64,000 nt of DNA from Candidatus Azambacteria bacterium (lineage in GTDB: Bacteria > Patescibacteriota > Minisyncoccia > GWC2-36-17 > WO2-46-25): contig JACRAK010000012.1 in NCBI GenBank assembly GCA_016234725.1, forward strand, positions 10,619 to 74,618, in the 5' to 3' direction. This document shows, piece by piece, positions 41,623 to 59,389 of the stretch. The notes under the pieces were generated by a model. The model saw only the letters and a list, made by a program, of their open reading frames with translations. It made no database searches and was not told where the DNA came from. Both the position numbers and the translations under genes were made by a program. Position 1 is the first letter of the stretch. Each line of letters begins with the position of its first letter.

Positions 41623-44134
41623 CGGAAACGCGCTCGTGCACCGCGCGTTTCACGCATTGCCGCCGCTCTCCCACGAAGGAGAGCCGACGAATGCCGTGTA
41701 TGGATTTACGAGCGTTTTGCTTAAGGTACTCCGCGAGCTGAAGCCCGATTACGTCATTGCGACGTTCGACTTGGCCGCGCCGACATTCCGCCATGAGGAA
41801 TTCGCCGAATACAAGGCGCACCGACCCAAGACCGCTGATGACCTCGTGGTGCAATTCCCGAAAGTGAAAGATATGGTGCGCGCATTTGATATTCCTATTT
41901 TTGAAAAAGAAGGTTTTGAAGCGGACGATCTTATCGGCACGATCGCTTTGCTTGCAAAACAGCACACGCCGCGGGTGAAAACCATTATTATCACCGGCGA
42001 TCTTGACACGCTCCAGCTCGTTGATGACGACACCGAGGTGTATACGCTCAAAAAAGGAATTTCAGATACGGTGGTGTATGATGAAAAAGCTGTGCGGGAG
42101 CGGTTTGGCATCGCGCCGTCGCAGATGAATGATTTCAAAGGGCTCAAAGGAGACCCGTCGGACAATATTCCCGGCGTGCCGGGCGTGGGGGAAAAGACCG
42201 CAACGCAACTATTGCAAGAGTACGGCTCGCTTGAAAATATATATGAAAACATCGGCGTGATGCCCGAAAAGGTGCGGGCAAAAATAGAGCCGTTCAAAGA
42301 CCAGGCGTTCTTTTCCAAAAGTTTGGCGACCATCAAGCGCGATGTGCCGATAGAGCTCGATATGGAAAAAGCGAAGTTCGGCGGGTATGACCAAGCAGGA
42401 ATAGAAGAAACGCTGAGAAAATACGGATTTGCAAGCTTGATCCCGCGGCTGGCGCTGCATCGAGCGCACCACGAAGAGATGGCGGTGAGCGGGCAAGCGC
42501 CGACGACAGTAGGGAGCGGGGACATCGGCAAGCTGGGCAAAGAAAAAATGATCGCATGCGCATGGGACGGCGCGCACGCGCAGGTAGCGACACAGGGCGG
42601 CGCGATATATCAGTGCGCGTTCGCAGACATAAAAAGCGTGCTTGAAGACGAGCGCGTGAAAAAGATCTGCTACGACAGCAAGCAGTTTATCAAAGCGTGC
42701 CGGAAAAAAGGCGTCGCGCCGCGCGGCATCGAGTTTGATATCATGCTCGCGGCGTATCTGTTGGCGCCGGGGGAGCGGGGGTATCCGCTTGAGCATATCG
42801 CCCATAAAGAAGATGTCGCCGCGCGGCCGCCGCTTTCTTTTTTTGCGCTGCGGGAGAAGCTGGACGACACATTGCGCGCAGAAGGGCTTGTGAAAGTGAT
42901 GTATGAAATAGAAATGCCGCTTGTGCCGGTGCTTGCCGAGATGGAGCGGGTGGGCGTGAAAATAGATGTGCGGGCGCTTGAGACGCTTTCTTTGCATCTT
43001 GAACAGGAAAAAAACGAGGCGACACAGCGCATTTTTGCGCACGCAGGGGAGGAGTTCAACCCTGATTCGCCCGCCCAGCTTTCAAAGATATTATTTGAAA
43101 AACTGAACATTGCGCTTCCGGCGCGCGCAAAGCGCGTGAAGTCGGGCCTTTACAGCACCAAGGCGGATGAGCTTGAAAAGATACGGGACGCGCACCCGCT
43201 TGTGGGCGAGATCATTCGGTATCGCGAAGTGGCGAAACTGAAAAGCACCTACGCGGACGCGTTGCGCGAAGCGGTGCATCCCGACACGGGACGAATACAC
43301 ACCATTTTTAACCAGACCGGCACGGCAACAGGGCGGCTGTCTTCATCGGACCCGAATATGCAGAACATTCCCCAGCGCGGGGAGTTTGCCGACGCCGTAC
43401 GTTCCGCGTTCGTTGCCGATGAGGGCTTCAGCTTTGTCGCGCTGGATTTTTCACAGATCGAATTGCGCATCATCGCGTCGCTTTCGGGCGATGAGAAAAT
43501 GATCCACATCTTTGAATCGGGCGGGGATATTCACCGAGCGACCGCCGCGGAGGTGAATCACGTGCCGCTTGAAGCTGTGACGAAAGAAATGCGCAACAGC
43601 GCAAAAGCGCTCAATTTCGGGATACTGTACGGGATGGGCCAGCGCGCATTTGCACAGACCGCGGGCATTGATATCAAGACCGCAAAACAATTCATCGAAG
43701 AATATTTCAAGAATTTTACCGGCGTTGCCGCATTTATAGAAAAAACAAAGGAACACGCAAAGAAATACGGTTTTGCGCAGACGCTTACGGGGCGGAAGCG
43801 GTGGCTGCCCGAGATACGCTCGCAAAACCCGATGATCCGCAACGGCGCCGAGCGCATGGCGCAGAACATGCCGACACAGGGCCTGCAGGCCGACATCATC
43901 AAGCTCGCGATGATACGCATTGCGCGTGAGGTGCTTGCGCCGCGGCACACTGACGATGTGCGCTTGCTGCTGCAGATACACGACGAATTAATTTTTGAGG
44001 TGAAGGATGATATAATCAAGGAGGTCGTGCCGATACTCCGGCACATCATGGAGTCCGTGTTTCCTTTGCGCGTGCCTATCCGTGTCGATGTGCACGCGGG
44101 CAAGCGGTGGGGGGCTCTTCACCCGTTTCTCTAA
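41591..44134 (+). CDS. polA: DNA polymerase I (5'-3' exonuclease + family A polymerase, Taq-like length)
   Basis: N-terminal LILIDGNALVHRAFHAL; motifs A/B/C (…DYSQIELR…, RRSAKAINFGIIYG-like, …HDE…). Confidence 0.9.
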   Translation: MNKQERLILIDGNALVHRAFHALPPLSHEGEPTNAVYGFTSVLLKVLRELKPDYVIATFDLAAPTFRHEEFAEYKAHRPKTADDLVVQFPKVKDMVRAFDIPIFEKEGFEADDLIGTIALLAKQHTPRVKTIIITGDLDTLQLVDDDTEVYTLKKGISDTVVYDEKAVRERFGIAPSQMNDFKGLKGDPSDNIPGVPGVGEKTATQLLQEYGSLENIYENIGVMPEKVRAKIEPFKDQAFFSKSLATIKRDVPIELDMEKAKFGGYDQAGIEETLRKYGFASLIPRLALHRAHHEEMAVSGQAPTTVGSGDIGKLGKEKMIACAWDGAHAQVATQGGAIYQCAFADIKSVLEDERVKKICYDSKQFIKACRKKGVAPRGIEFDIMLAAYLLAPGERGYPLEHIAHKEDVAARPPLSFFALREKLDDTLRAEGLVKVMYEIEMPLVPVLAEMERVGVKIDVRALETLSLHLEQEKNEATQRIFAHAGEEFNPDSPAQLSKILFEKLNIALPARAKRVKSGLYSTKADELEKIRDAHPLVGEIIRYREVAKLKSTYADALREAVHPDTGRIHTIFNQTGTATGRLSSSDPNMQNIPQRGEFADAVRSAFVADEGFSFVALDFSQIELRIIASLSGDEKMIHIFESGGDIHRATAAEVNHVPLEAVTKEMRNSAKALNFGILYGMGQRAFAQTAGIDIKTAKQFIEEYFKNFTGVAAFIEKTKEHAKKYGFAQTLTGRKRWLPEIRSQNPMIRNGAERMAQNMPTQGLQADIIKLAMIRIAREVLAPRHTDDVRLLLQIHDELIFEVKDDIIKEVVPILRHIMESVFPLRVPIRVDVHAGKRWGALHPFL

Positions 44135-44135
44135 C

Positions 44136-46268
44136 ATGGCGCTTTTCACTCACCACGATAAAAAAACAGCGGCACGGGAAACGCCAAGCGCGTTTCCCGT
44201 GTGGCGGACGGTGGCCGTCGGCTTGGTCGTCGTCGTGGCTTTTAATATCTTTTGGCTTGTTCCCGCGCTTCGCGACATGGAAGACAGGGTGCTTGCTCAT
44301 TTGCTTGAAACAGCGGAGAAGATCGAGATCGAAGCGAAAGAGATCGTTATCAGTCATCCAAAAAACCAGATCGATGAGCTTGCGCTCTTTGTGCTGCAAA
44401 AGCTGCGCGGCAATGTGACGCTCGATACGTTCGACGCGGGAGAGATCACGGCATTCTTGCAGGACAGGAACGAGGTGGTCGAGGTGTTTATCATCGATGC
44501 ATCAGGCATGGAAAAGGCGCGCGTATCGCATGGAAGAGTATTTGCGCCGCACGAACTCCGCAATGTCGCGGGAAGCGATTATTTTATCGAAGCACTCAAC
44601 GGGGGGTTTACCGCCCGCGCGTATCATTTGCCGCAGAAAGGCATTCCAAACATTCTCGCGTATGAACGCGTTGATGTGCCCGACCTCGGCACGTTCGTGT
44701 TCGGCGTGAATGTCGACATCCGCGATCGGCTGGAAGGGTTTTCGCAGAAGATCATGGAGGAAGAAGGGGAGCGCGTGTATATCGCCGATGATACCGGCGC
44801 GATCATCGACCACTATGCCCCGGAGCGGGTCGGCAATTCTTTGCTGCAGCTGGATTTCGTGAAGAAGGTGTTTGACGAGAGGGGAGGGGAAAAATATACG
44901 TATCAGTCCGGCGCGTATACCGACCGATCCGGCGAGAAAATGCAGGCGGTCGCGCTGTTGTTCGAGCCGATAAATTTCGTGATCGTTGCCGAAGAAGAAT
45001 ACGGGGAAGTGTGGCAAACATGGAACAAATTTCTCTTTTTTGCCATTGCGGGCCTGATCCTTTTTGTGCTGCTCGCGCTTGTGCTGACGCGGAGCACGCT
45101 TCGCGCGGTTGATTTTTCAAATCAGCTCATACGGGAAAAAGGAAGAACGGAGTCGGTGATCGCAAATCTCGAAACAGGCATCATCGAGTACAGCCCTGAT
45201 TTCCTCGTAACGCTTATGAATCCGAAAGCAGAGCAGATCCTCGGCGTTACAAAAGAAGATGCGCTCGGAGCCATTATCCATCCGAACATTATCCATAAAA
45301 ATCCGGCGCTCACGTCTCTGGCGCAGGTGCTGTACCCCATTCTCGCCGAGAACGTGCGGAAGGTCCGCCTTCAAAAAGGGATGCCTGATATCATTGAAAT
45401 GAGGTTGAGCAGGCCTTCCGAGATCGAGCTGCAGATCTCCACCATCCCTATTCGCGACGAGAAGAATAGCGTGGTGCGGTATTTGAAGGTGCTTCGCGAC
45501 GTATCGCGCGAGCAGGCGATCGCAAAGTCGAAGTCGGAATTCATTTCCGTTGCGGCGCATCAGCTGCGCACGCCGCTGTCGGCGATCAAGTGGGTCATGA
45601 AGCTCATGCTGGACCAGGACGCGGGGCCGATCACCCCTGAACAAAAAGACCTGTTGACGAAAGGGTATGAGTCCAATGAGCGGATGATCGAGCTGGTGAC
45701 CGACATGCTTGATGTTGCGCGCATTGAAGAAGGGAAGTTCGGATTTTCCTTTCAGCATACGAACCTCATCGCGCTGGTCCAGAAAGCGATGGATGCGTTC
45801 GTCGTAAAGGCGAAAGAAAAGAACATCATGCTCGTGTTTGAAAAGCCGGAAACGGCCTATTCGCTCAAGATCGATGCCGCGCGCATCGAGCTGGTGCTGC
45901 AGAATTTCATCGATAACGCGCTCAAATACACCCCCAATGACGGAACGATCACGGTAAGCATCACGGCAACCGGGAGATATGTAAAGATAAGCATTCGGGA
46001 CACGGGCATCGGCGTGCCCAAGGAGCAGGCGGTGCGCCTGTTCACGAAATTCTTCCGCGGGACGAACGCGGTGAAACGGCAAACGGAGGGAAGCGGGCTC
46101 GGGCTGTTTTTGGCAAAGAACATCGTGATGCGCCATGGGGGGAATGTTTCCGTGGAAACGGAAGAAGGGAAGGGCTCGGCATTCTCCTTTACATTGCCGC
46201 TGGACGAAGATAAGATTCCCGGAGAAGAGGGCAAGAACGAGGAATTCGTAAACGGACTCTCCACATGA
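44136..46268 (+). CDS. Sensor histidine kinase (TM/extracytoplasmic region, PAS, HisKA, HATPase_c)
   Basis: H-box AAHQLRTPLSAIKW; G-boxes; start placed just after polA stop. Confidence 0.75.
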   Translation: MALFTHHDKKTAARETPSAFPVWRTVAVGLVVVVAFNIFWLVPALRDMEDRVLAHLLETAEKIEIEAKEIVISHPKNQIDELALFVLQKLRGNVTLDTFDAGEITAFLQDRNEVVEVFIIDASGMEKARVSHGRVFAPHELRNVAGSDYFIEALNGGFTARAYHLPQKGIPNILAYERVDVPDLGTFVFGVNVDIRDRLEGFSQKIMEEEGERVYIADDTGAIIDHYAPERVGNSLLQLDFVKKVFDERGGEKYTYQSGAYTDRSGEKMQAVALLFEPINFVIVAEEEYGEVWQTWNKFLFFAIAGLILFVLLALVLTRSTLRAVDFSNQLIREKGRTESVIANLETGIIEYSPDFLVTLMNPKAEQILGVTKEDALGAIIHPNIIHKNPALTSLAQVLYPILAENVRKVRLQKGMPDIIEMRLSRPSEIELQISTIPIRDEKNSVVRYLKVLRDVSREQAIAKSKSEFISVAAHQLRTPLSAIKWVMKLMLDQDAGPITPEQKDLLTKGYESNERMIELVTDMLDVARIEEGKFGFSFQHTNLIALVQKAMDAFVVKAKEKNIMLVFEKPETAYSLKIDAARIELVLQNFIDNALKYTPNDGTITVSITATGRYVKISIRDTGIGVPKEQAVRLFTKFFRGTNAVKRQTEGSGLGLFLAKNIVMRHGGNVSVETEEGKGSAFSFTLPLDEDKIPGEEGKNEEFVNGLST

Positions 46269-49427: not shown

Positions 49428-49476
49428 TGCCGTTGCGTATTACTGATAACTACCGGTTGTTCCGGTGGTGTATTTG

Positions 49477-49850
49477 TGGAGATGGCGAGAGTTGAACTCG
49501 CATCCAAAAAGCTATTCACACTATTTCTCCAAACGTAGGTTGTTTGTTGTTCTCGCGTGCCGGCTGGAAAGCAACCAAAATGCCGGAACGTACAGCCGCT
49601 TAGCTTAACGATACGCTGCGGCGGCGTATCGCGCAACCTGATACTATAACACCGGAGGCCCACCTATCAGGCGTTAGCAGGTCCGATGGCAAGAGTACTA
49701 GACCCTTGCGAAAGAAAGAGGAGCAAAGCTTAACGCTATTGCATTCTTTACTTTTGAGAATAAGTTTGCACTTATTGGTGTGTGCCGCCGTTTTCCGAGC
49801 AGGCGACGACCTCGGTCTGCATAGTGTGAAAAGAACTCTCTGTCAAAGCC
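49477..49850 (-). ncRNA. ssrA: tmRNA (SsrA)
   Basis: 5' GGGGAUGUUGGGCUUUGACAGAG…; 3' tRNA-like T-arm GCGAGUUCAACUCUCGC and acceptor CAUCUCC pairing with 5' GGGGAUG; adjacent to smpB; CCA not encoded. Confidence 0.75.
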
Positions 49851-49916
49851 CAACATCCCCGAAACTATAAAACATAAAACATGGAACTTGAAACATAAAA
49901 CTAAAAGATTCAAGTT

Positions 49917-50366
49917 TTACGCTTCATGTTTCATGATTTTTGCTTTCTCGCGTGTAAACTCTTTTTTCTTGATGTCCTCACGCTTTTCGAACTTCTTTTT
50001 CGAGCGTGCGAGGCCGAATTCAAGCTTGATTTTACGACCCTCATTGTACAGCGAAATGGGAATGAGTGTCAAGCCTTTTTTGGCCGTTTTTCCTGCAAGT
50101 TCAGCGATCTCCCGCTTGGTCAGCAAGAGTTTTCGCGGGCGGGTTTTATCATACCCCGCGGGCGTGTTCTGGGGCTGGTAGGGCGCGATAGGCGCATTGA
50201 TCCAAAACGCCTCGCCGCCGCGGATGATGACGAAGGAACCAGCAAGGTTCGCCTTTTTCGAGAATGCCGCCTTCGCCTCAAAACCAAAAAGCACGATGCC
50301 TGCGCGGTATCGGTCAAGTATTTCATAGTCAAATAACACTTTTTTGTTTTCAGCAAGTAAGGCCAT
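49917..50366 (-). CDS. smpB: SsrA-binding protein SmpB
   Basis: MALLAENKKVLFDYEILDRYRAGIVL… canonical SmpB. Confidence 0.9.
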   Translation of the reverse strand: MALLAENKKVLFDYEILDRYRAGIVLFGFEAKAAFSKKANLAGSFVIIRGGEAFWINAPIAPYQPQNTPAGYDKTRPRKLLLTKREIAELAGKTAKKGLTLIPISLYNEGRKIKLEFGLARSKKKFEKREDIKKKEFTREKAKIMKHEA

Positions 50367-50423: not shown

Positions 50424-51614
50424 CTACAAAGGAAGATAGATCTTGAAGATCGTACGATGCGCGATCTTTTTATGTCTTTTTTTCGTTTTGCTTTCCGCAA
50501 TGATCGTGCCGCCGTGTCCCTGGACGATCTGTTCGGTCGTCGCAAGACCGAGGCCGGTGCCGTTCGTTTTCGTGGTGAAGAACGGGTTGAATATCTCCTT
50601 GAGATCTTCCTGATCGATCACTTTTCCGTCGTTCGCGATCGAAACGAGGATGCGCTTTCTGCGCGGCCGGATCTTCATTCTCACCCATGTGTTCTTCGCT
50701 CCCGCTTCATCCGCGTTTCGTATGATATCGTGCAGGCACGTCTCCATCATTTCTTTATCGAAACATACCGTGATGTCGTGATCGAGTTGGAAGAGGTGGA
50801 AATGGACGGTGGGGTGTGATGGGCGTATTTTTTCAAGAAAGTGCCGCAAAAATCCGTTTACGCCATAATCGCCCAGCTTGAGCCGCTCGGGAGCGAACTT
50901 TGAGTACTCAAGGACGTTCTTCGTTACTCGTTCGAGTCCTTTGACCTCCTCGGAGACCAAAGATGCATATTTTCTTCCGGCGCTTGAAAGCGACTGGTCT
51001 TCCTTGAGGCGGTTTGAGAGCCCGCCGATGATCATAAGCGCGTTCCGCACCACATGCGCGACTTGCGCATATTTCTGCCCCATAAGCGATAACCGCTCCC
51101 GTTGCAGCGCTCTTTTTTCTTCCTCCATGTTTTTGTGCGCTTTTTCTATCGCGCGCGCTACGGGCCCGCTGACGATCTTTGCTGTTTTCATGACTTCCGA
51201 CGGTCTTTCTATGACCGATGTGAAATCGAACACCATGATACCGAGCGGTTCTTCTTTTGAAAGAAGCGGGGCAAAGATAATGTCAGAAATGCCGTAGCGC
51301 GCGGCATGCTCTTTGAGGTGCGGCGTCCGCGGATTCCGCGCAGGATCATGTATGTGCACTACGCGCTGGTGTTCGTTCATGACGCCCCGTAAGAATTCGG
51401 CGTGTTTCTCGGTAACTTCTTGTCCAACGGCATGACCTCCTTCTGGATATCCCGCATACAGGACCAGCCCGTTTTTTTTCACGGGGAGTACGATGCAGCA
51501 GCGCGGGCATCCGGCGATCTGCGCGCTCTTTGCTGCGGCAATGCGCAGCGCCTCCGAAAGCGATTTGATTATGATCTCCTCCGCCATCTCCGCAAATGCG
51601 ATCAACTTGTTCAT
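50424..51614 (-). CDS. Cytoplasmic sensor histidine kinase with GAF domain
   Basis: GAF-like N-term; H-box; C-terminal GLGLATTEQIVQGHGGTI. Confidence 0.7.
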   Translation of the reverse strand: MNKLIAFAEMAEEIIIKSLSEALRIAAAKSAQIAGCPRCCIVLPVKKNGLVLYAGYPEGGHAVGQEVTEKHAEFLRGVMNEHQRVVHIHDPARNPRTPHLKEHAARYGISDIIFAPLLSKEEPLGIMVFDFTSVIERPSEVMKTAKIVSGPVARAIEKAHKNMEEEKRALQRERLSLMGQKYAQVAHVVRNALMIIGGLSNRLKEDQSLSSAGRKYASLVSEEVKGLERVTKNVLEYSKFAPERLKLGDYGVNGFLRHFLEKIRPSHPTVHFHLFQLDHDITVCFDKEMMETCLHDIIRNADEAGAKNTWVRMKIRPRRKRILVSIANDGKVIDQEDLKEIFNPFFTTKTNGTGLGLATTEQIVQGHGGTIIAESKTKKRHKKIAHRTIFKIYLPL

Positions 51615-51753
51615 GTCTCCCTCCCTTTATATTTTGTTTTAATGTGCGTCGTTTTTTGAATACGCGTGTTGTACGCTATTTTTATGCATCAGTCAAGAGT
51701 GTAAAAAGCCTGTTTTCTTGATAGTTTCTAGGTTTTCGAGTACCATAGCTACT

Positions 51754-54700
51754 ATGAGTACACAAGAAAAACAGGAAAAATCTCAGCTTGCGCGCATGGA
51801 AGAAGAGGTGCTTGCGTGGTGGAACGAACAGAAGGTGTTTGAGCAGGTTCTCGCAAAACGAAAAAAAGGGAAATTATTCGTGTTTTATGAGGGTCCTCCG
51901 ACCGCCAACGGCATGCCGCATCCGGGGCACGTGATGGGGCGGTGCTTTAAGGATCTTTTTTTGCGGTATAAATCGATGCAGGGGTATTTTGTTCCGCGGA
52001 ACGCGGGGTGGGATACGCACGGCTTGCCGGTGGAGATAGAAATAGAAAAAAAACTCGGCATCACCAAAAAATCCGACATCGAGAAATTCGGCATCGGGGA
52101 ATTCAACCGGTTGTGCAAAGAGTCGGTATGGAAATACAAAGACGAATGGGAAAAGATGACCAATCGCATCGGGTTCTGGCTCGATATGAAGCATCCGTAT
52201 ATCACGTATGAAGCGAAATATATGGAAACGCTGTGGTGGATCATCAAACGCATATTCGAGAAAGGGCTTTTGGTGGAGGAGTACAAGGTGATGCAATACT
52301 GCGCGCGGTGCGGGACCGGCCTTTCGTCGCATGAGATCGCGCAGGGATATAAAACGGTCAAAGACAAGTCGGTATATGTGAAATTCCCTCTGGCGCGGCG
52401 TGCGGCCGAAGAGCGCGTGCATGAGAAAGCGAAACACAAAGCGGTGTTTGATGAGCACGATGATCCCGATGGGCGCGAATATTTTTTGGTATGGACGACG
52501 ACGCCCTGGACGCTCCCCGCGAATGTTGCGCTCGCAGTACACCCTGATATCGAGTATGTAAAGGCGAAAAAAGAGAACGAAGTGCTTATCGTAGCGAAGG
52601 ATCGCGTGAGCATCCTCGGCGAAGGATGGGAGGTCGTGCGGACGATGAAGGGAAAGGAACTTCTCGGTGTGCGGTATGAGCAGCTTTTCACATTCCTTAC
52701 GCCAGACAAAGACGCGTTCTTTGTCGTTGCGGGTGATTTTGTGTCTGCTCTAGACGGGTCGGGGATAGTGCATCTGGCGCCCGCATACGGAGAAGACGAC
52801 ATGGCGGCGGCAAAAAAATACAACCTTCCCGTATTGCACCCGGTGCAGGAGAATGGGGAGTTTGGCGCGCCGATCCCGTGGCGGGGGACGTTCGTGAAAA
52901 ATACGGACGGAGCGATCGTGAACGAGCTTCGAGAGCGCGGACTCTTTTTCAAAGAAGAAGCATACGAACATGAATATCCGTTCTGCTGGCGGTGCGATAC
53001 GCCGATTTTATATTACGCGCGGAAATCGTGGTTCATCACGATGTCTCAATTGCGAGGAAAGCTGATCGAAAGCAATAAAAAAGTAAATTGGGTGCCCGCC
53101 CATACAAAAGAAGGGAGATTCGGCGAATGGCTCACGCAGGCAAAGGATTGGGCGTTCTCGCGCGAGCGGTATTGGGGCACGCCGCTGCCGTTGTGGCGGT
53201 GCGACGGGTGCGGCACAGTGGAGGCCATCGGGAGCGTTGCCGAGCTCGGCGCGCGGTCCCGGTTGCGCAACCGGTATTTCATGATACGGCACGGGCAGGC
53301 GGCGTTCAACGCGAAACGCATAGCGGAAACATCAGGAAGGGCGGAAAATCATCTCACAAAAAAAGGTATTTTGGAGAGCACGGCTGCGCTCGCGCGATTT
53401 GCAAAAAAACACAAAGGAGTCGTTCCCGATGTTATTATCTCATCTCCGTTCGTACGCACACAGGAAACGGCGCGCATCGTGGCGGAACATTTTGGCATCG
53501 CGCCCGAGCGCATCGTGACGGATGCGGCGATCCAGGAGATGGACATCGGCGTGTTTGATGGCAAGCCGGTAAAACAATACCATGCGTATTTTGCTTCGTA
53601 TGAAGAGATGTTTGAAAAGCGGCCTCCCGAAGCGAAAGAGAATCTGACCGATCTTCGCGCGCGCGTCGCCGCGTTCATACAGGATGCGGAGAAACGACAC
53701 GAAGGGAAGACCATTTTTATCGTGGGGCACGAGTATTCATTATGGATGCTGGAAACAGCATTATATGGATATGACCTTGCAGAGACCATCGCGGCAAAAA
53801 AGAAAAAAGGAGACGACTATATCGCAACCGGAGAGATGCGCGAACTGCCGCGCATGCATTTGCCGCTTGATGAGAACGGATCTTTGGATCTGCACAAGCC
53901 GCACATTGATGCTATTACCTTTGCATGCCGGGCGTGCGAAAAGGGAATGATGCGACGCGTGCCGGAAGTATGCGATGTGTGGTTTGATTCCGGTGCGATG
54001 CCCTTCGCGCAGATGCATTTTCCGTTCGCGCAGGGCGACACGAGCGGCGCTAAAAAAAGCATCGTTCAACTCATGAAGCAGATCCCGTACCCCGCCGATT
54101 TTATCACCGAGGGCGTTGATCAGACGCGCGGGTGGTTCTATACGCTCCTTGCGGTCGCGACCGCGCTTGATGCGGGCGTCCCGTACCGCACCGTGATCTC
54201 GCAGGGGCATATTTTGGACAAGCACGGCAAAAAGATGTCGAAGTCAAAAAAGAATTATACCGATCCGCTTATGATCGCCGACACATACGGCATCGATGCG
54301 CTGCGGTGGTTTTTTTTCGTGGTGAATCCGGTGGGGGAGCCGAAGCGGTTTGATGAAAAAGACGTGCTTGATGCGCAGCGCAAATCGGTCATGATGCTTA
54401 TCAACATCGGGAACTTTCTCAGATCATACGCATACGCGGGGCGCGCGCCGGCGGCCCTGCCCCCGGCCAAAAACCCGCTTGACCGATGGATCATATCAAA
54501 ACTGAACCATGCGGTGGCCGCCGTGACGGATGCGATGGAGGCGTATGACGCGCAAAGCGCGGGACGGCACATCGCGGCGCTCCTTGACGACGTTTCCAAT
54601 TGGTATATCCGCCGCTCGCGCGAACGGTTCCAGCTCGCCGAAGATGCGCACGATCACAAAGCCGCAAGCATGGTGCTCACAATGGTGTTTGAGCGCACGC

Positions 54701-55323
54701 TGACGCTTGCAGCGCCGTTCATTCCATTTACCACTGAACGGCTGTGGTTGAACATGGGCAAAAAAACAAGTATTCATTGTGAAAAGTATCCGCGCGCGGA
54801 CAAAAAACGCATTGATAAGAAGCTCGAATATGCTATGATGCGGGTACGGGAAGCGGCGAGCGCGGCGCTCAAAGCGAGAGCGGAAGCGCGCATGAAAGTG
54901 CGCCAGCCGCTTGGCATAGTAAAGATCAGCGGCAAGGCATTTGGTCATGTGAAAAAAGAATTGCTCCATCTTCTTAAAGATGAGGTGAATGTAAAAGAGG
55001 TCGTGGTGGATGATGCGCTTGCCGAAGGAGTGTGGCTCGACACGACCGTCACGCCGGAGCTGAAAGAAGAAGGAATGATGCGGGAGGTCACGCGGCACAT
55101 CCAGCAGGCGCGCAAAGAAGCCGGGCTTACGAAGAAAGACAGCGTCGTGCTCCAATGCGCCGCCGACGGAGAAATGAGACGTACGCTTGAAGCATGGGGT
55201 GAGCGGCTGTCCTTAAGGATCGTTGCGCGAAACATAGAGTATGTCGCGCGCGATGGTATGAAGGATCCCCGCGAGATCACCGGAGACGATTATCATTTGT
55301 GGTTTGCACTAAAACCGATATGA
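51754..55323 (+). CDS. ileS: Isoleucine--tRNA ligase carrying an in-frame histidine-phosphatase (PGAM-like) domain insertion
   Basis: HIGH (PHPGHV), KMSKS, CP1 editing region, zinc-knuckle WRCDGCG; inserted about 200 aa with RHG (FMIRHGQAAFN) and GHE (IVGHEYS) motifs at about 53248-53856. Confidence 0.85.
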   Translation: MSTQEKQEKSQLARMEEEVLAWWNEQKVFEQVLAKRKKGKLFVFYEGPPTANGMPHPGHVMGRCFKDLFLRYKSMQGYFVPRNAGWDTHGLPVEIEIEKKLGITKKSDIEKFGIGEFNRLCKESVWKYKDEWEKMTNRIGFWLDMKHPYITYEAKYMETLWWIIKRIFEKGLLVEEYKVMQYCARCGTGLSSHEIAQGYKTVKDKSVYVKFPLARRAAEERVHEKAKHKAVFDEHDDPDGREYFLVWTTTPWTLPANVALAVHPDIEYVKAKKENEVLIVAKDRVSILGEGWEVVRTMKGKELLGVRYEQLFTFLTPDKDAFFVVAGDFVSALDGSGIVHLAPAYGEDDMAAAKKYNLPVLHPVQENGEFGAPIPWRGTFVKNTDGAIVNELRERGLFFKEEAYEHEYPFCWRCDTPILYYARKSWFITMSQLRGKLIESNKKVNWVPAHTKEGRFGEWLTQAKDWAFSRERYWGTPLPLWRCDGCGTVEAIGSVAELGARSRLRNRYFMIRHGQAAFNAKRIAETSGRAENHLTKKGILESTAALARFAKKHKGVVPDVIISSPFVRTQETARIVAEHFGIAPERIVTDAAIQEMDIGVFDGKPVKQYHAYFASYEEMFEKRPPEAKENLTDLRARVAAFIQDAEKRHEGKTIFIVGHEYSLWMLETALYGYDLAETIAAKKKKGDDYIATGEMRELPRMHLPLDENGSLDLHKPHIDAITFACRACEKGMMRRVPEVCDVWFDSGAMPFAQMHFPFAQGDTSGAKKSIVQLMKQIPYPADFITEGVDQTRGWFYTLLAVATALDAGVPYRTVISQGHILDKHGKKMSKSKKNYTDPLMIADTYGIDALRWFFFVVNPVGEPKRFDEKDVLDAQRKSVMMLINIGNFLRSYAYAGRAPAALPPAKNPLDRWIISKLNHAVAAVTDAMEAYDAQSAGRHIAALLDDVSNWYIRRSRERFQLAEDAHDHKAASMVLTMVFERTLTLAAPFIPFTTERLWLNMGKKTSIHCEKYPRADKKRIDKKLEYAMMRVREAASAALKARAEARMKVRQPLGIVKISGKAFGHVKKELLHLLKDEVNVKEVVVDDALAEGVWLDTTVTPELKEEGMMREVTRHIQQARKEAGLTKKDSVVLQCAADGEMRRTLEAWGERLSLRIVARNIEYVARDGMKDPREITGDDYHLWFALKPI

Positions 55324-55901
55324 GCCAGCGATCGACCATTGCACTTGTCGTGAAAAGAAAAAACAAGGGGGAGCACGACCAACTGCTCACCCTGTTCACG
55401 AAGCGATACGGAAAGATCGAGTGCGTGTGCCGGGGGATCCGCAAGAAGGAGGCGAAGCTTGCCGGACATCTCGGGTTGTTGTGCGTTTCCGACGTCAGCT
55501 TCGTGTTGGGGAAACACACGAAAGTGCTCACCTCCGCATGCGATCGCGAGCATTTTTCGGCGATCAAAAAGGACCTTATCAAGTTGAAAGCCGCACAGCG
55601 CATCGTGAAGCTCCTTGATGCGTATACGATCACGGAAGCAAAAGACGAGGCGATCTTCAACCTGGTGGTCGGCGCGCTTGATTATCTGAATCGGCGGGAG
55701 ATGACGATGCTTGAATTGAAATTTTTCCTCCGCTATTTTGAATTTAAATTCTTGAGCCTGCTGGGGTATGAGCCGGAAGACAAGACGATCATGCGGGCGT
55801 TTTGCAATGAGCATATCGCGCTCTCCGAGCAAGAGCTCGATACGATGGAAGAGATCTTTGACCGGCATTTCAGGGATATTTACGGAGTAGTGAATATGTA
55901 A
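55320..55901 (+). CDS. recO: DNA repair protein RecO
   Basis: OB-fold N-term; ATG overlaps ileS stop (ATGA). Confidence 0.65.
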   Translation: MSQRSTIALVVKRKNKGEHDQLLTLFTKRYGKIECVCRGIRKKEAKLAGHLGLLCVSDVSFVLGKHTKVLTSACDREHFSAIKKDLIKLKAAQRIVKLLDAYTITEAKDEAIFNLVVGALDYLNRREMTMLELKFFLRYFEFKFLSLLGYEPEDKTIMRAFCNEHIALSEQELDTMEEIFDRHFRDIYGVVNM

Positions 55902-57988: not shown

Positions 57989-59389
57989 ATGGCAGGGCAA
58001 ACAACATTGGAAGACATCGTTTCGCTGTGCAAGCGGCGAGGGTTCGTGTATCCGTCGTCCGAGATCTACGGCGGGTTTGCCGGCGTGTATGACTACGGGC
58101 ATTACGGCGTGTTGCTGAAAAACAATATTCAGGCGGCATGGTGGCGGCACATGGTGCAGCTGCGCGACGATGTGTACGGGCTCGACAGCGCCATCTTCAT
58201 GCACCCAAAAACGTGGGTGGCATCCGGCCATGTCGGCGGCTTTAACGACCCGCAGATCGATTGCAGGAAATGCAAGAACCGCATGCGCGCGGATCATGTG
58301 CTTGAGGCGTTCGGCATCAACGCCGATAAGGCGACGATCGAATACATTAATACCGAGCTCGACAAGCTGAAAGAGAAAAAAGCATTGAAATGCGCGAACT
58401 GCGGATCTTCCGATCTGACGCCGGCACGGGTCTTTTCGCTCATGGTGAAATCAAATCTCGGCTCTCCGACCGAGGAGTTGAGCGATGAGAACGCGGCATA
58501 CCTCCGCCCGGAAACGTGCGGCGGTATTTATCTGGAATACAAAAACACCATTGATTCTTTGCATCCGAAGCTGCCGTTTGGGATCGCGCAGGTGGGGAAG
58601 GCGTTCCGCAATGAGATCGTTGCCCGCCAATTCGTGTTCCGCACCCGGGAGTTCGAGCAAATGGAGATGCAGTATTTTTTGCATCCCGATGACATGAAAA
58701 AAAGCTACGAGATGTGGAAGCAGGAGCGGTGGCGATGGTATCTGGCGTACGGGATCCCACAGGAGAAGATACGATGGTACCAGCACGAGAAGCTCGCGCA
58801 CTACGCGTCGGAAGCGTACGATATCGAGTTTTCGTTCTCGTCGCTCGGCGGCTTTAAGGAGGTTGAAGGCATCCATGCGCGCGGCGATTGGGACTTGTCA
58901 CAGCACGCAAAGCATTCCGGCGCCGACCTGTCGTATACGGATGAAACGACCAAACAGAAATTCATTCCGCATATCATGGAAACGTCCGTCGGGCTGGGGC
59001 GATTGTTTTTGATGTTCATTGATCACGCGTATACGCAAGAAGAGGTGAACGGAGAAACGCGGACGGTGCTGAAGCTCGATAAGCGCCTCGCTCCCGTGAA
59101 GGCTGCGGTGTTTCCGCTGTTGCGCAACAAGCCGGAGCTCGTGAGCAAAGCGCGCGAGGTATACGACCTGCTGAAAGGCGTGTTCATGTGCGAGTTCGAC
59201 GACAACGGCAACATCGGCAAGCGCTACCGGAGGCAGGACGAAATAGGCACGCCATGGTGCCTTACCATTGATTTTCAAACACTGGAAGACGGCACGATCA
59301 CCGTGCGCGACCGCGACACGCTCGCGCAGGAGCGCGTGGCGATCGCCGATTGCGTTGCATATCTAAAGGAACGCTATGAATCCCGTTAG
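57989..59389 (+). CDS. glyQS: Glycine--tRNA ligase (dimeric alpha2 type)
   Basis: MAGQTTLEDIVSLCKRRGFVYPSSEIYGGFAGVYDYG… class II motifs. Confidence 0.9.
   Translation: MAGQTTLEDIVSLCKRRGFVYPSSEIYGGFAGVYDYGHYGVLLKNNIQAAWWRHMVQLRDDVYGLDSAIFMHPKTWVASGHVGGFNDPQIDCRKCKNRMRADHVLEAFGINADKATIEYINTELDKLKEKKALKCANCGSSDLTPARVFSLMVKSNLGSPTEELSDENAAYLRPETCGGIYLEYKNTIDSLHPKLPFGIAQVGKAFRNEIVARQFVFRTREFEQMEMQYFLHPDDMKKSYEMWKQERWRWYLAYGIPQEKIRWYQHEKLAHYASEAYDIEFSFSSLGGFKEVEGIHARGDWDLSQHAKHSGADLSYTDETTKQKFIPHIMETSVGLGRLFLMFIDHAYTQEEVNGETRTVLKLDKRLAPVKAAVFPLLRNKPELVSKAREVYDLLKGVFMCEFDDNGNIGKRYRRQDEIGTPWCLTIDFQTLEDGTITVRDRDTLAQERVAIADCVAYLKERYESR

Follow-up and report, generated by a model that had tools for sequence, protein, structure and literature searches.

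A histidine phosphatase nested in the isoleucyl-tRNA synthetase of a Candidatus Azambacteria bacterium, with stand-alone relatives encoded beside ileS

Introduction

Why should an aminoacyl-tRNA synthetase carry a second, complete enzyme inside its own polypeptide chain? The question is raised by a stretch of 64,000 nucleotides from a Candidatus Azambacteria bacterium (contig JACRAK010000012.1 of assembly GCA_016234725.1, positions 10,619 to 74,618 of the forward strand; the whole stretch is called the window below). In it, ileS, the gene for isoleucyl-tRNA synthetase (IleRS) at 51754..55323 on the forward strand, encodes a type-2 (eukaryote-like) enzyme with a nested phosphatase, as identified by its open reading frame (ORF), TIGR00392, Pfam and Foldseek. 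A first-pass annotation of the sequence had proposed that a complete histidine phosphatase domain lies in frame within this IleRS, and the splitting of a Pfam domain, the homologues, and the alignment to the Thermus thermophilus IleRS structure 1ILE all agree that it does. Few enzymes have been studied as thoroughly as aminoacyl-tRNA synthetases, and new catalytic domains nested in synthetase cores are rare, the editing domain being the classic case.

The insert is a complete histidine phosphatase

Residues are numbered here according to the 1189-aa ileS product that starts at the ATG at 51754, unless stated otherwise. A phmmer alignment of the window IleRS with 1ILE is interrupted between residues 502 and 711: residues 12–502 and 711–1045 align to Thermus residues 10–480 and 488–819. 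Given the gap between Thermus residues 480 and 488, 208 residues of the window protein (aa 503–710; 53260..53883, forward strand) replace seven residues of the Thermus enzyme, and the insert initially placed at 53248–53856 was thus right to within a few codons. The phosphatase module itself (aa 505–697; 53266..53844) matches stand-alone proteins of ∼190 aa from end to end, and its Pfam His_Phos_1 core (PF00300; 53278–53784) is matched with an E value of 1.7e-28 and 100.1 bits against a gathering cutoff of 21.7 (aa 521–689 in the numbering of the 1201-aa product). Our own family hidden Markov model (HMM) scores the window insert at 226 bits, and in a six-frame search of the 64-kb window with this model no second copy of the domain was found.

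All of the catalytic positions of the superfamily can be located. The RHG motif, with R512, the nucleophile H513 and G514, is at 53287..53295; the second phosphate-binding arginine, R568 (53455..53457), is part of an SSPFVRT motif (53440–53460); the putative proton-donor acid, E595 (53536..53538), starts an EMDIG motif (53536–53550); and the second catalytic histidine, H659 (53728..53730), belongs to a VGHE motif (53722–53733), which holds the GHE signature that had been reported together with RHG. In an alignment of 116 fused IleRS proteins R512, H513, R568 and H659 are present in every one (116/116), the glycine of RHG is present in 112, and the acid is Glu in 93 and Asp in 23. Relatives with a homologous segment lacking these signatures would have spoken against the assignment; none of the 116 aligned at the insert lacks the RHG or the second-His motif. 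These catalytic positions stay invariant while the insert is only ∼35–38% identical overall, and it diverges faster than the IleRS body of the same proteins (∼32–36% vs ∼47% identity).

Structure prediction with AlphaFold2 gave a full-length model with a predicted local distance difference test score (pLDDT) of 90.2 and a predicted template modelling score (pTM) of 0.84, with pLDDT values of 90–97 over the insert; modelled alone, the insert reached a pLDDT of 94.8 and a pTM of 0.91. Foldseek searches with the insert model returned more than 300 PDB chains of the histidine phosphatase family at a probability of 1.0. By Pfam match, catalytic set and fold, the insert is a complete branch-1 member of the histidine phosphatase superfamily, and its intact catalytic set indicates that it is apparently an active phosphomonoesterase.

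The insertion site is in the peripheral, zinc-binding connective peptide 3 (CP3) subdomain of the Rossmann fold, and is flanked by the two CxxC pairs of a zinc knuckle. The first (CDGC, C483/C486; 53200..53211) is invariant and aligns to CQAC of Thermus, and the second (CRAC, C725/C728; 53926..53937) is likewise invariant, as scored, like all IleRS-body motifs below, in an alignment of 65 homologues. CP3 binds zinc in Thermus IleRS and is variable in topology among IleRSs (PMC7191050). The domain had been described as embedded in the catalytic core of the synthetase; it is indeed nested in the synthetase, but in this peripheral zinc-knuckle subdomain and not in the core proper. Among solved IleRS structures, compared by sequence and by Foldseek, none has a domain at this position.

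The host enzyme is a type-2 IleRS

The ileS reading frame is uninterrupted from 51718 to 55323 on the forward strand; its product has 1201 aa if translation begins at a TTG codon and 1189 aa if the ATG at 51754 is used. The start is ambiguous (51718, 51754 or ∼51796); an identical database protein (P0039) is annotated as 1175 aa, and relatives are annotated at 1176–1204 aa, although the choice has no effect on the finding. In Pfam terms, tRNA-synt_1 (PF00133) is interrupted by His_Phos_1 and is followed by Anticodon_1 (PF08264) and the type-2 C-terminal DUF5915 (PF19302). The protein scores 897.5 bits with the NCBIfam ileS equivalog model TIGR00392, above its cutoff of 621.4, and is a member of that family.

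The functional motifs of the synthetase are in place on both sides of the insert. The class I signature HxGH is present as HPGH (aa 56–59; 51919..51930), with H59 invariant, and the KMSKS loop (aa 827–831; 54232..54246) has K827, M828, S829 and K830 invariant; the absence of stops and frameshifts and the intact flanking motifs were thus correctly reported. The threonine-rich motif TTTPWT of the CP1 editing domain (aa 248–253; 52495..52512) is part of a WTTTPWTLP block in which W247–W252 are invariant, as is D349, and the region aligns to the Thermus editing-domain structures 1WK8 and 1UE0. By model score and these intact signature and editing motifs, the window protein is an isoleucyl-tRNA synthetase.

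Several observations bear on its type. The next-best NCBIfam matches after TIGR00392 are the MupA and MupB models, and DUF5915 is found at the C-terminus. Compared with solved structures, the window IleRS matches 1ILE at E=1.6e-234, and the values for 1ILE and the Priestia megaterium IleRS2 8C8U of ∼1e-230 compare with 1e-92 for the IleRS1 structure 1FFY. Foldseek gave TMt values of 0.82–0.86 for the window IleRS model against 8C8U and 1ILE, and its ranking of IleRS2 over IleRS1 agrees with that obtained from the sequences. The host enzyme is, on these comparisons, a bona fide type-2 IleRS. It shares HxGH, KMSKS, the CP1 editing motifs, Anticodon_1 and DUF5915 with both 1ILE and 8C8U, which represent this eukaryote-like, mupirocin-resistant type, and the two Cys4 zinc knuckles with T. 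thermophilus IleRS, but differs from 1ILE and 8C8U in having 208 aa with a complete enzyme in place of a seven-residue CP3 loop.

Two minor features of the IleRS body were also observed. The editing domain opens with a charged segment of ∼20–25 aa, AAEERVHEKAKHKAVFDEHDDPDGRE (aa 218–237; ∼52405–52470), which has no Thermus counterpart and is the sole internal region of the IleRS model with a pLDDT below 50; it is probably a disordered, lineage-specific loop. The class I signature is canonical in the window protein, whereas among 114 scored insert-bearing homologues (within the set P0039–P0158) 91 have GxHH (GIHH, GLHH, GVHH and others) and 22 have HxGH. In IleRS2, GxHH has been associated with hyper-resistance to mupirocin (Brkic et al. 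2023, PMC10485003). Because both forms occur among insert-bearing homologues, the motif has switched within the clade.

The architecture is authentic and widespread in Parcubacteria

PF00300 and the IleRS domains occur together in all of the best 120 matches of the full-length search (44–83% identical, 1116–1220 aa). The best homologues come from Candidatus Azambacteria (80% identical), Nealsonbacteria, Zambryskibacteria, Giovannonibacteria, Wildermuthbacteria, Pacebacteria and the 'Parcubacteria group', and in a scan of species-representative genomes the nearest relatives were in metagenome-assembled genomes of Azambacteria and other Patescibacteria, with 76–78% identity over the insert. Since the insertion is shared down to 44% identity, it must be ancient. 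The architecture had been called highly unusual, which holds relative to characterised synthetases; the nested phosphatase is nonetheless the norm in a large Parcubacteria clade, and a comparable arrangement recurs in valyl-tRNA synthetase (ValRS; see below).

Databases list the fused proteins as 'class I tRNA ligase family protein' or 'isoleucine--tRNA ligase', so the architecture itself is already public. It was not described in the literature searched, which comprised open-access papers and preprints, such that an earlier mention elsewhere is possible; neither a phosphatase nor Patescibacteria is mentioned in a 2026 preprint devoted to the evolution of IleRS domains. The fused and split pairing and the ValRS parallel described below appear to be undescribed.

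A chimeric contig or a frameshift join between neighbouring genes can be ruled out: the frame is continuous, GC content is unbroken across both insert junctions, a 100%-identical protein is present in an independent assembly, and the architecture itself is found in more than 100 independent assemblies and in all of the 120 best homologues. An intein is ruled out as well, as there is no match to a Hint or other intein Pfam model and the insert begins with RLRN and ends with ENGS followed by L; starting with R and ending with S then L, it lacks splice-junction residues, and the phosphatase fold accounts for its whole length. The first-pass annotation had reached the same conclusion on both counts.

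A close relative of the window locus (L001; ENA ERZ1286166 contig_556) is 75% identical over the insert, and its ileS is broken into many ORFs, as is essentially every gene on that contig. We rejected it as an example of a naturally split gene, the fragmentation being contig-wide and typical of an uncorrected long-read assembly. The seemingly free-standing His_Phos ORF of this contig (P0001), an artefact, is left out of the count of split genes.

The phosphatase matches no family of defined specificity

The closest structures to the insert model by Foldseek are 9MMH, Rv2419c, PspA, CobC and PhoE (probability 1.0, TM 0.61–0.72), and the dPGM mutases rank lower. Among the small phosphatases matched, 9MMH is a histidine-family enzyme of the riboflavin pathway, Rv2419c acts on glucosyl-3-phosphoglycerate and PspA on phosphoserine. 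The insert resembles PhoE (1H2E), PspA (4IJ5), CobC (6E4B), Rv2419c GpgP (4PZ9) and 9MMH in having the minimal fold of ∼190–210 aa with a full catalytic set of RHG, second Arg, Glu and second His (phmmer E=2e-12 to 2e-7), but is only 20–28% identical to them and, unlike them, is nested in or genetically tied to a synthetase. Its subfamily also has marks of its own relative to PhoE-type enzymes, namely N-x-Y before RHG and a C-terminal TGE-x-R strand.

None of the specific identities that we considered was retained. Membership of the dPGM family was rejected with scores of 32.7 against a cutoff of 81.7 for TIGR01258 and 58.9 against 225 for NF038349, and with all PRK dPGM models far below their cutoffs; SixA at 40.5 against 74.5, with a match limited to insert residues 10–87, the N-terminal half; CobC at 67.8 against 162.9; and PspA at 60 against 350. 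The domain had been termed PGAM-like, and of this the histidine phosphatase part stands and the likeness to a mutase does not. It is a histidine phosphatase of undefined specificity, similar to PhoE, PspA and CobC, and is not a recognisable mutase.

Two known fusions offer partial parallels. NF040702 ('isoleucine--tRNA ligase, N-acetyltransferase domain-containing') also joins an accessory enzyme domain to IleRS, but with a score of 317 the window protein stays far below the cutoff of 1999 and is not a member. PRK07238 ('bifunctional RNase H/acid phosphatase', Rv2228c type) places an accessory enzyme on a nucleic-acid enzyme, and its phosphatase half is the best NCBIfam match of the insert (71.7 bits); with 67–72 bits against a cutoff of 326, the window protein does not belong to this family either.

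Stand-alone members of the family are encoded beside insert-free ileS genes

An exhaustive HMMER search with the 208-aa insert gave 5476 matches at E≤1e-3, 375 of them at E≤1e-10, and recovered the fused IleRSs together with many proteins of ∼190 aa. These small proteins start with a Met just ahead of the N-x-Y-RHG strand, their C-termini directly follow the TGE-x-R strand, and they correspond exactly to the insert. The five catalytic positions are conserved in a set of 28 stand-alone proteins.

We examined the genomic context of nine stand-alone family members, whose gene we call hp. In all nine loci hp directly adjoins ileS, lying immediately upstream in seven and in a convergent arrangement in the other two. 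In the seven upstream cases the two genes overlap by as much as 13 nt or are separated by up to 50 nt, and argS is found upstream of hp wherever the flank is readable, with the exception of L006. The gene orders are argS–hp–ileS–x–recO in L002/3/4, in which ileS encodes 984 aa, lacks the insert and scores 688 bits with TIGR00392; hp–ileS in L006 and L013; argS–hp–ileS with an 11-nt overlap in L007; argS–hp with a convergent ileS in both L008 and L016; argS–hp–ileS–recO in L014/15 (IleRS of 949 aa); hp–ileS with a 13-nt overlap in L017; and L20–L35–IF3–smpB / argS–hp–ileS–x–recO–DUF7619 in L018/19 (IleRS of 938 aa). At each hp/ileS junction the two genes have their own stop and start codons and are in different frames. 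The partner IleRSs are mutually ∼35–45% identical where the overlap is long enough, although the closely related pair from L002 and L007 shares 80%.

Stand-alone and nested domains share a mean identity of 35.5%, and up to 64%, which is the same level as within each group, and the two interleave in a neighbour-joining tree; this tree has no support values and does not establish the number of fusion or fission events. Given the equal identity between and within groups and the interleaving, we read the sequences as a single family whose members are encoded either adjacent to ileS or nested within it, the window showing the fused state of a conserved partnership. The stand-alone Patescibacteria phosphatases (for example P0198, P0262 and P0295) have the same end-to-end boundaries, catalytic residues and argS–hp–ileS–recO locus, and differ in being encoded by a separate gene beside an insert-free IleRS of 938–984 aa, as opposed to being nested in CP3 as in the window. 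One of them, P0198, has as its best NCBIfam match a short archaeal dPGM model (92 bits).

A similar domain is nested in ValRS

In a search seeded with a ValRS segment, 33 of the 120 best matches carry PF00300, and 31 of these are ValRS, from Gracilibacteria, Doudnabacteria, Andersenbacteria and other Patescibacteria. The phosphatase starts ∼27–30 aa after a WCISRQ motif in nearly all of them, which is the CP3 site homologous to that of IleRS; one is in CP2. A set of 28 ValRS inserts keeps the catalytic residues, apart from a few exceptions at the first Arg. At ∼25% identity to the IleRS and stand-alone family, these inserts are no closer to it than are generic members of the superfamily, which suggests that ValRS acquired its phosphatase at this site independently, or at the least very long ago. 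Selection accounts for such recurrence more readily than chance does. The ValRSs with a nested His_Phos (for example P0307, P0316 and P0205) are thus similar to the window protein in being class Ia editing synthetases with the catalytic residues and the CP3 site in common, but differ in the synthetase concerned, in the distance of the phosphatase, and in sometimes using CP2 or carrying four copies.

Two synthetases have more than one copy. P0205, a ValRS fragment of 1161 aa, has four His_Phos domains, one of them in CP2 and the others forming a tandem array of three in CP3 after WGHRIPVW, and P0220, an IleRS of 1419 aa, has one in CP3 (with RHA for RHG) and another inside the anticodon-binding domain.

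What the nested phosphatase may do

On the evidence above we favour, and think reasonably probable, the explanation that the insert is an active phosphatase that is functionally coupled to class Ia synthetases, the window protein being the fused form of a conserved two-gene partnership. The module would be an accessory phosphomonoesterase tethered one to one, physically on a class Ia synthetase. It would act through a phospho-histidine mechanism in which H513 attacks the phosphate, R512, R568 and H659 hold it, and E595 protonates the leaving group. By such a reaction it would keep either the substrate or the synthetase fit for charging.

Our leading guess for the substrate, held with low confidence and the most speculative part of the proposal, is a nucleotide-type phosphoester tied to aminoacylation, such as a tRNA whose 3' end is blocked for charging by a phosphate or pyrophosphate, or else an alarmone or a nucleotide by-product; a nucleotide or alarmone had already been suggested in the first-pass annotation. 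Three observations form the background to this guess. Enzymes that act on nucleotide-like 5'-phosphates (CobC, 9MMH) are among the nearest characterised relatives; the pyrophosphorylation of tRNA CCA ends by toxSAS toxins is a known block to charging; and in yeast IleRS the linker between CP2 and CP3 lines the pocket for the tRNA CCA end (PMC7955072), this linker being immediately upstream of the insert.

Other observations weigh against a coupled, translation-linked phosphatase. In human leucyl-tRNA synthetase (LeuRS) the LSD2 element, at the equivalent position, is on the face opposite the aminoacylation site (PMC7229842), which makes direct channelling doubtful; together with the yeast linker it leaves the published picture of this site ambiguous. 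The characterised near neighbours all act on small metabolites and not on RNA or proteins, and the variety of insertion sites (CP3, CP2 and the anticodon-binding domain) equally fits any permissive loop. Adjacency of hp and ileS could partly reflect gene order inherited within Patescibacteria. In 83% of proteins the insert is somewhat more basic than the body of the IleRS, with median isoelectric points (pI) of 9.5 for inserts and 9.1 for bodies, but at a pI of 8.7 the window insert is not especially basic; as proteomes of the candidate phyla radiation (CPR) are basic anyway, we dropped insert charge as a proxy for RNA binding.

A broader proposal that takes in the ValRS parallel is possible, albeit doubtful: in a major bacterial radiation, class Ia synthetases (the IleRS of Parcubacteria and the ValRS of Gracilibacteria, Doudnabacteria and other groups) may have, besides aminoacylation and editing, a third catalytic activity, a dedicated phosphatase that acts on the aminoacylation system itself and was recruited at least twice independently to CP3, toggling between nested and adjacent states. 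It might, for example, clear tRNA 3'-phosphate or pyrophosphate, remove a phosphorylated nucleotide or inhibitor, or reverse attack by a kinase on the synthetase.

The main rival to a coupled phosphatase is that the domain is a metabolic hitch-hiker, a housekeeping small-molecule phosphatase (for phosphoserine or a sugar phosphate, or a short dPGM-like enzyme) that settled in a permissive loop, is co-expressed with an essential gene and has no link to aminoacylation. We regard this as unlikely, yet it draws on much that is reported above: the nearest structures and sequences are those of metabolic phosphatases, the stand-alone P0198 is best matched by a dPGM model, CP3 topology is highly variable among IleRSs, the equivalent LeuRS element points away from the active site, and insertions are also found in CP2 and the anticodon-binding domain. 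Against it, hp lies beside ileS in nine of nine cases although the partner IleRSs are mostly only 35–45% identical, and ValRS has gained a His_Phos, distantly related, at the corresponding site; arrays of two to four copies per synthetase are hard to square with a metabolic need, and all metabolic equivalog models score far under their cutoffs. Even a passenger domain would be a clear natural case of a whole enzyme accommodated by a permissive loop of a synthetase, from which both protein engineering and annotation could profit.

A protein phosphatase or regulatory role is less likely, and we think it improbable. The domain would then dephosphorylate the synthetase, for example after attack by HipA/HipT-type kinases that hit class I synthetases near KMSKS, or would act on a signalling protein and couple isoleucine or tRNA status to signalling. 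The histidine phosphatase superfamily does include the protein phosphatases SixA, PGAM5 and Sts-1, tethering in cis would suit self-repair, and a GAF-HisKA-HATPase kinase is divergently adjacent to ileS in both the window and L001. The SixA match, though, is weak and partial, below its cutoff and confined to the N-terminal half of the insert; the kinase neighbour is not kept in the split loci, which have argS there instead; no kinase partner was identified; and the closest structures are of small-molecule enzymes.

Less probable again is a non-catalytic module, a structural or dimerisation element or a sensor of a phosphate ligand in which enzymatic activity is of no relevance. Histidine phosphatases commonly dimerise, even-numbered arrays of two or four copies exist, and the domain diverges faster than the IleRS body; but pseudo-enzymes normally lose their catalytic residues, and here all five positions are conserved across the 116 IleRS inserts, the 28 stand-alone proteins and the 28 ValRS inserts, with the few exceptions at the first Arg. 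An artefact (an assembly chimera, frameshift-joined neighbours, or an intein or other selfish insertion) has next to no probability and is excluded by the continuous frame and composition, the identical protein elsewhere, the lack of a Hint domain and the sharing of the insert down to 44% identity, the fragmented gene of L001 being the one hint of it and sitting on a contig that is fragmented throughout.

The fusion, which extends over much of the Patescibacteria, the adjacency and the ValRS parallel argue that the phosphatase has been selected for a role tied to translation, one that is absent from model organisms, and the substrate could reveal a new step in the maintenance of tRNA or synthetase, a new resistance to translation-targeting toxins, or a link to nutrient signalling. 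The organisms concerned are mostly uncultured and their biology is largely unknown.

Genomic neighbourhood of ileS

The genes around ileS are, in order, those for tmRNA, SmpB and a GAF histidine kinase, then ileS with its insert, recO and a gene for a DUF11 protein. The tmRNA gene (49474–49860, reverse strand; Rfam 129 bits) encodes the tag peptide ANLFSKVKNAIALSFAPLSFARV, and smpB (49917–50366, reverse strand) is directly beside it. Downstream of ileS, recO (55299..55901, forward strand; RecO_N/RecO_C) overlaps the ileS 3' end, its GTG start at 55299 being 25 nt ahead of the ileS stop (55323), an arrangement that suggests translational coupling. The order ileS–recO is kept in L001, L002, L014 and L018, and recO provides an anchor for comparing fused and split loci. 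Judged by gene content (smpB ... ileS–recO), L018/19 is recognisably the same locus as that in the window; the smpB–ileS–recO neighbourhood is conserved in L001 as well as L018. The split loci have a small gene of 100–118 aa without a family match between ileS and recO, which is absent from the window.

The soluble GAF-HisKA-HATPase histidine kinase (50424–51614, reverse strand) is divergent from ileS and sits where the split loci have argS and the stand-alone phosphatase gene. A second kinase, of PAS-HisKA-HATPase type, is encoded at 44082–46268. A class II synthetase of 466 aa (tRNA-synt_2b and HGTP_anticodon; 57989–59389, forward strand) is encoded 2.7 kb downstream; it has no phosphatase domain, and the same domain pair follows in L001.

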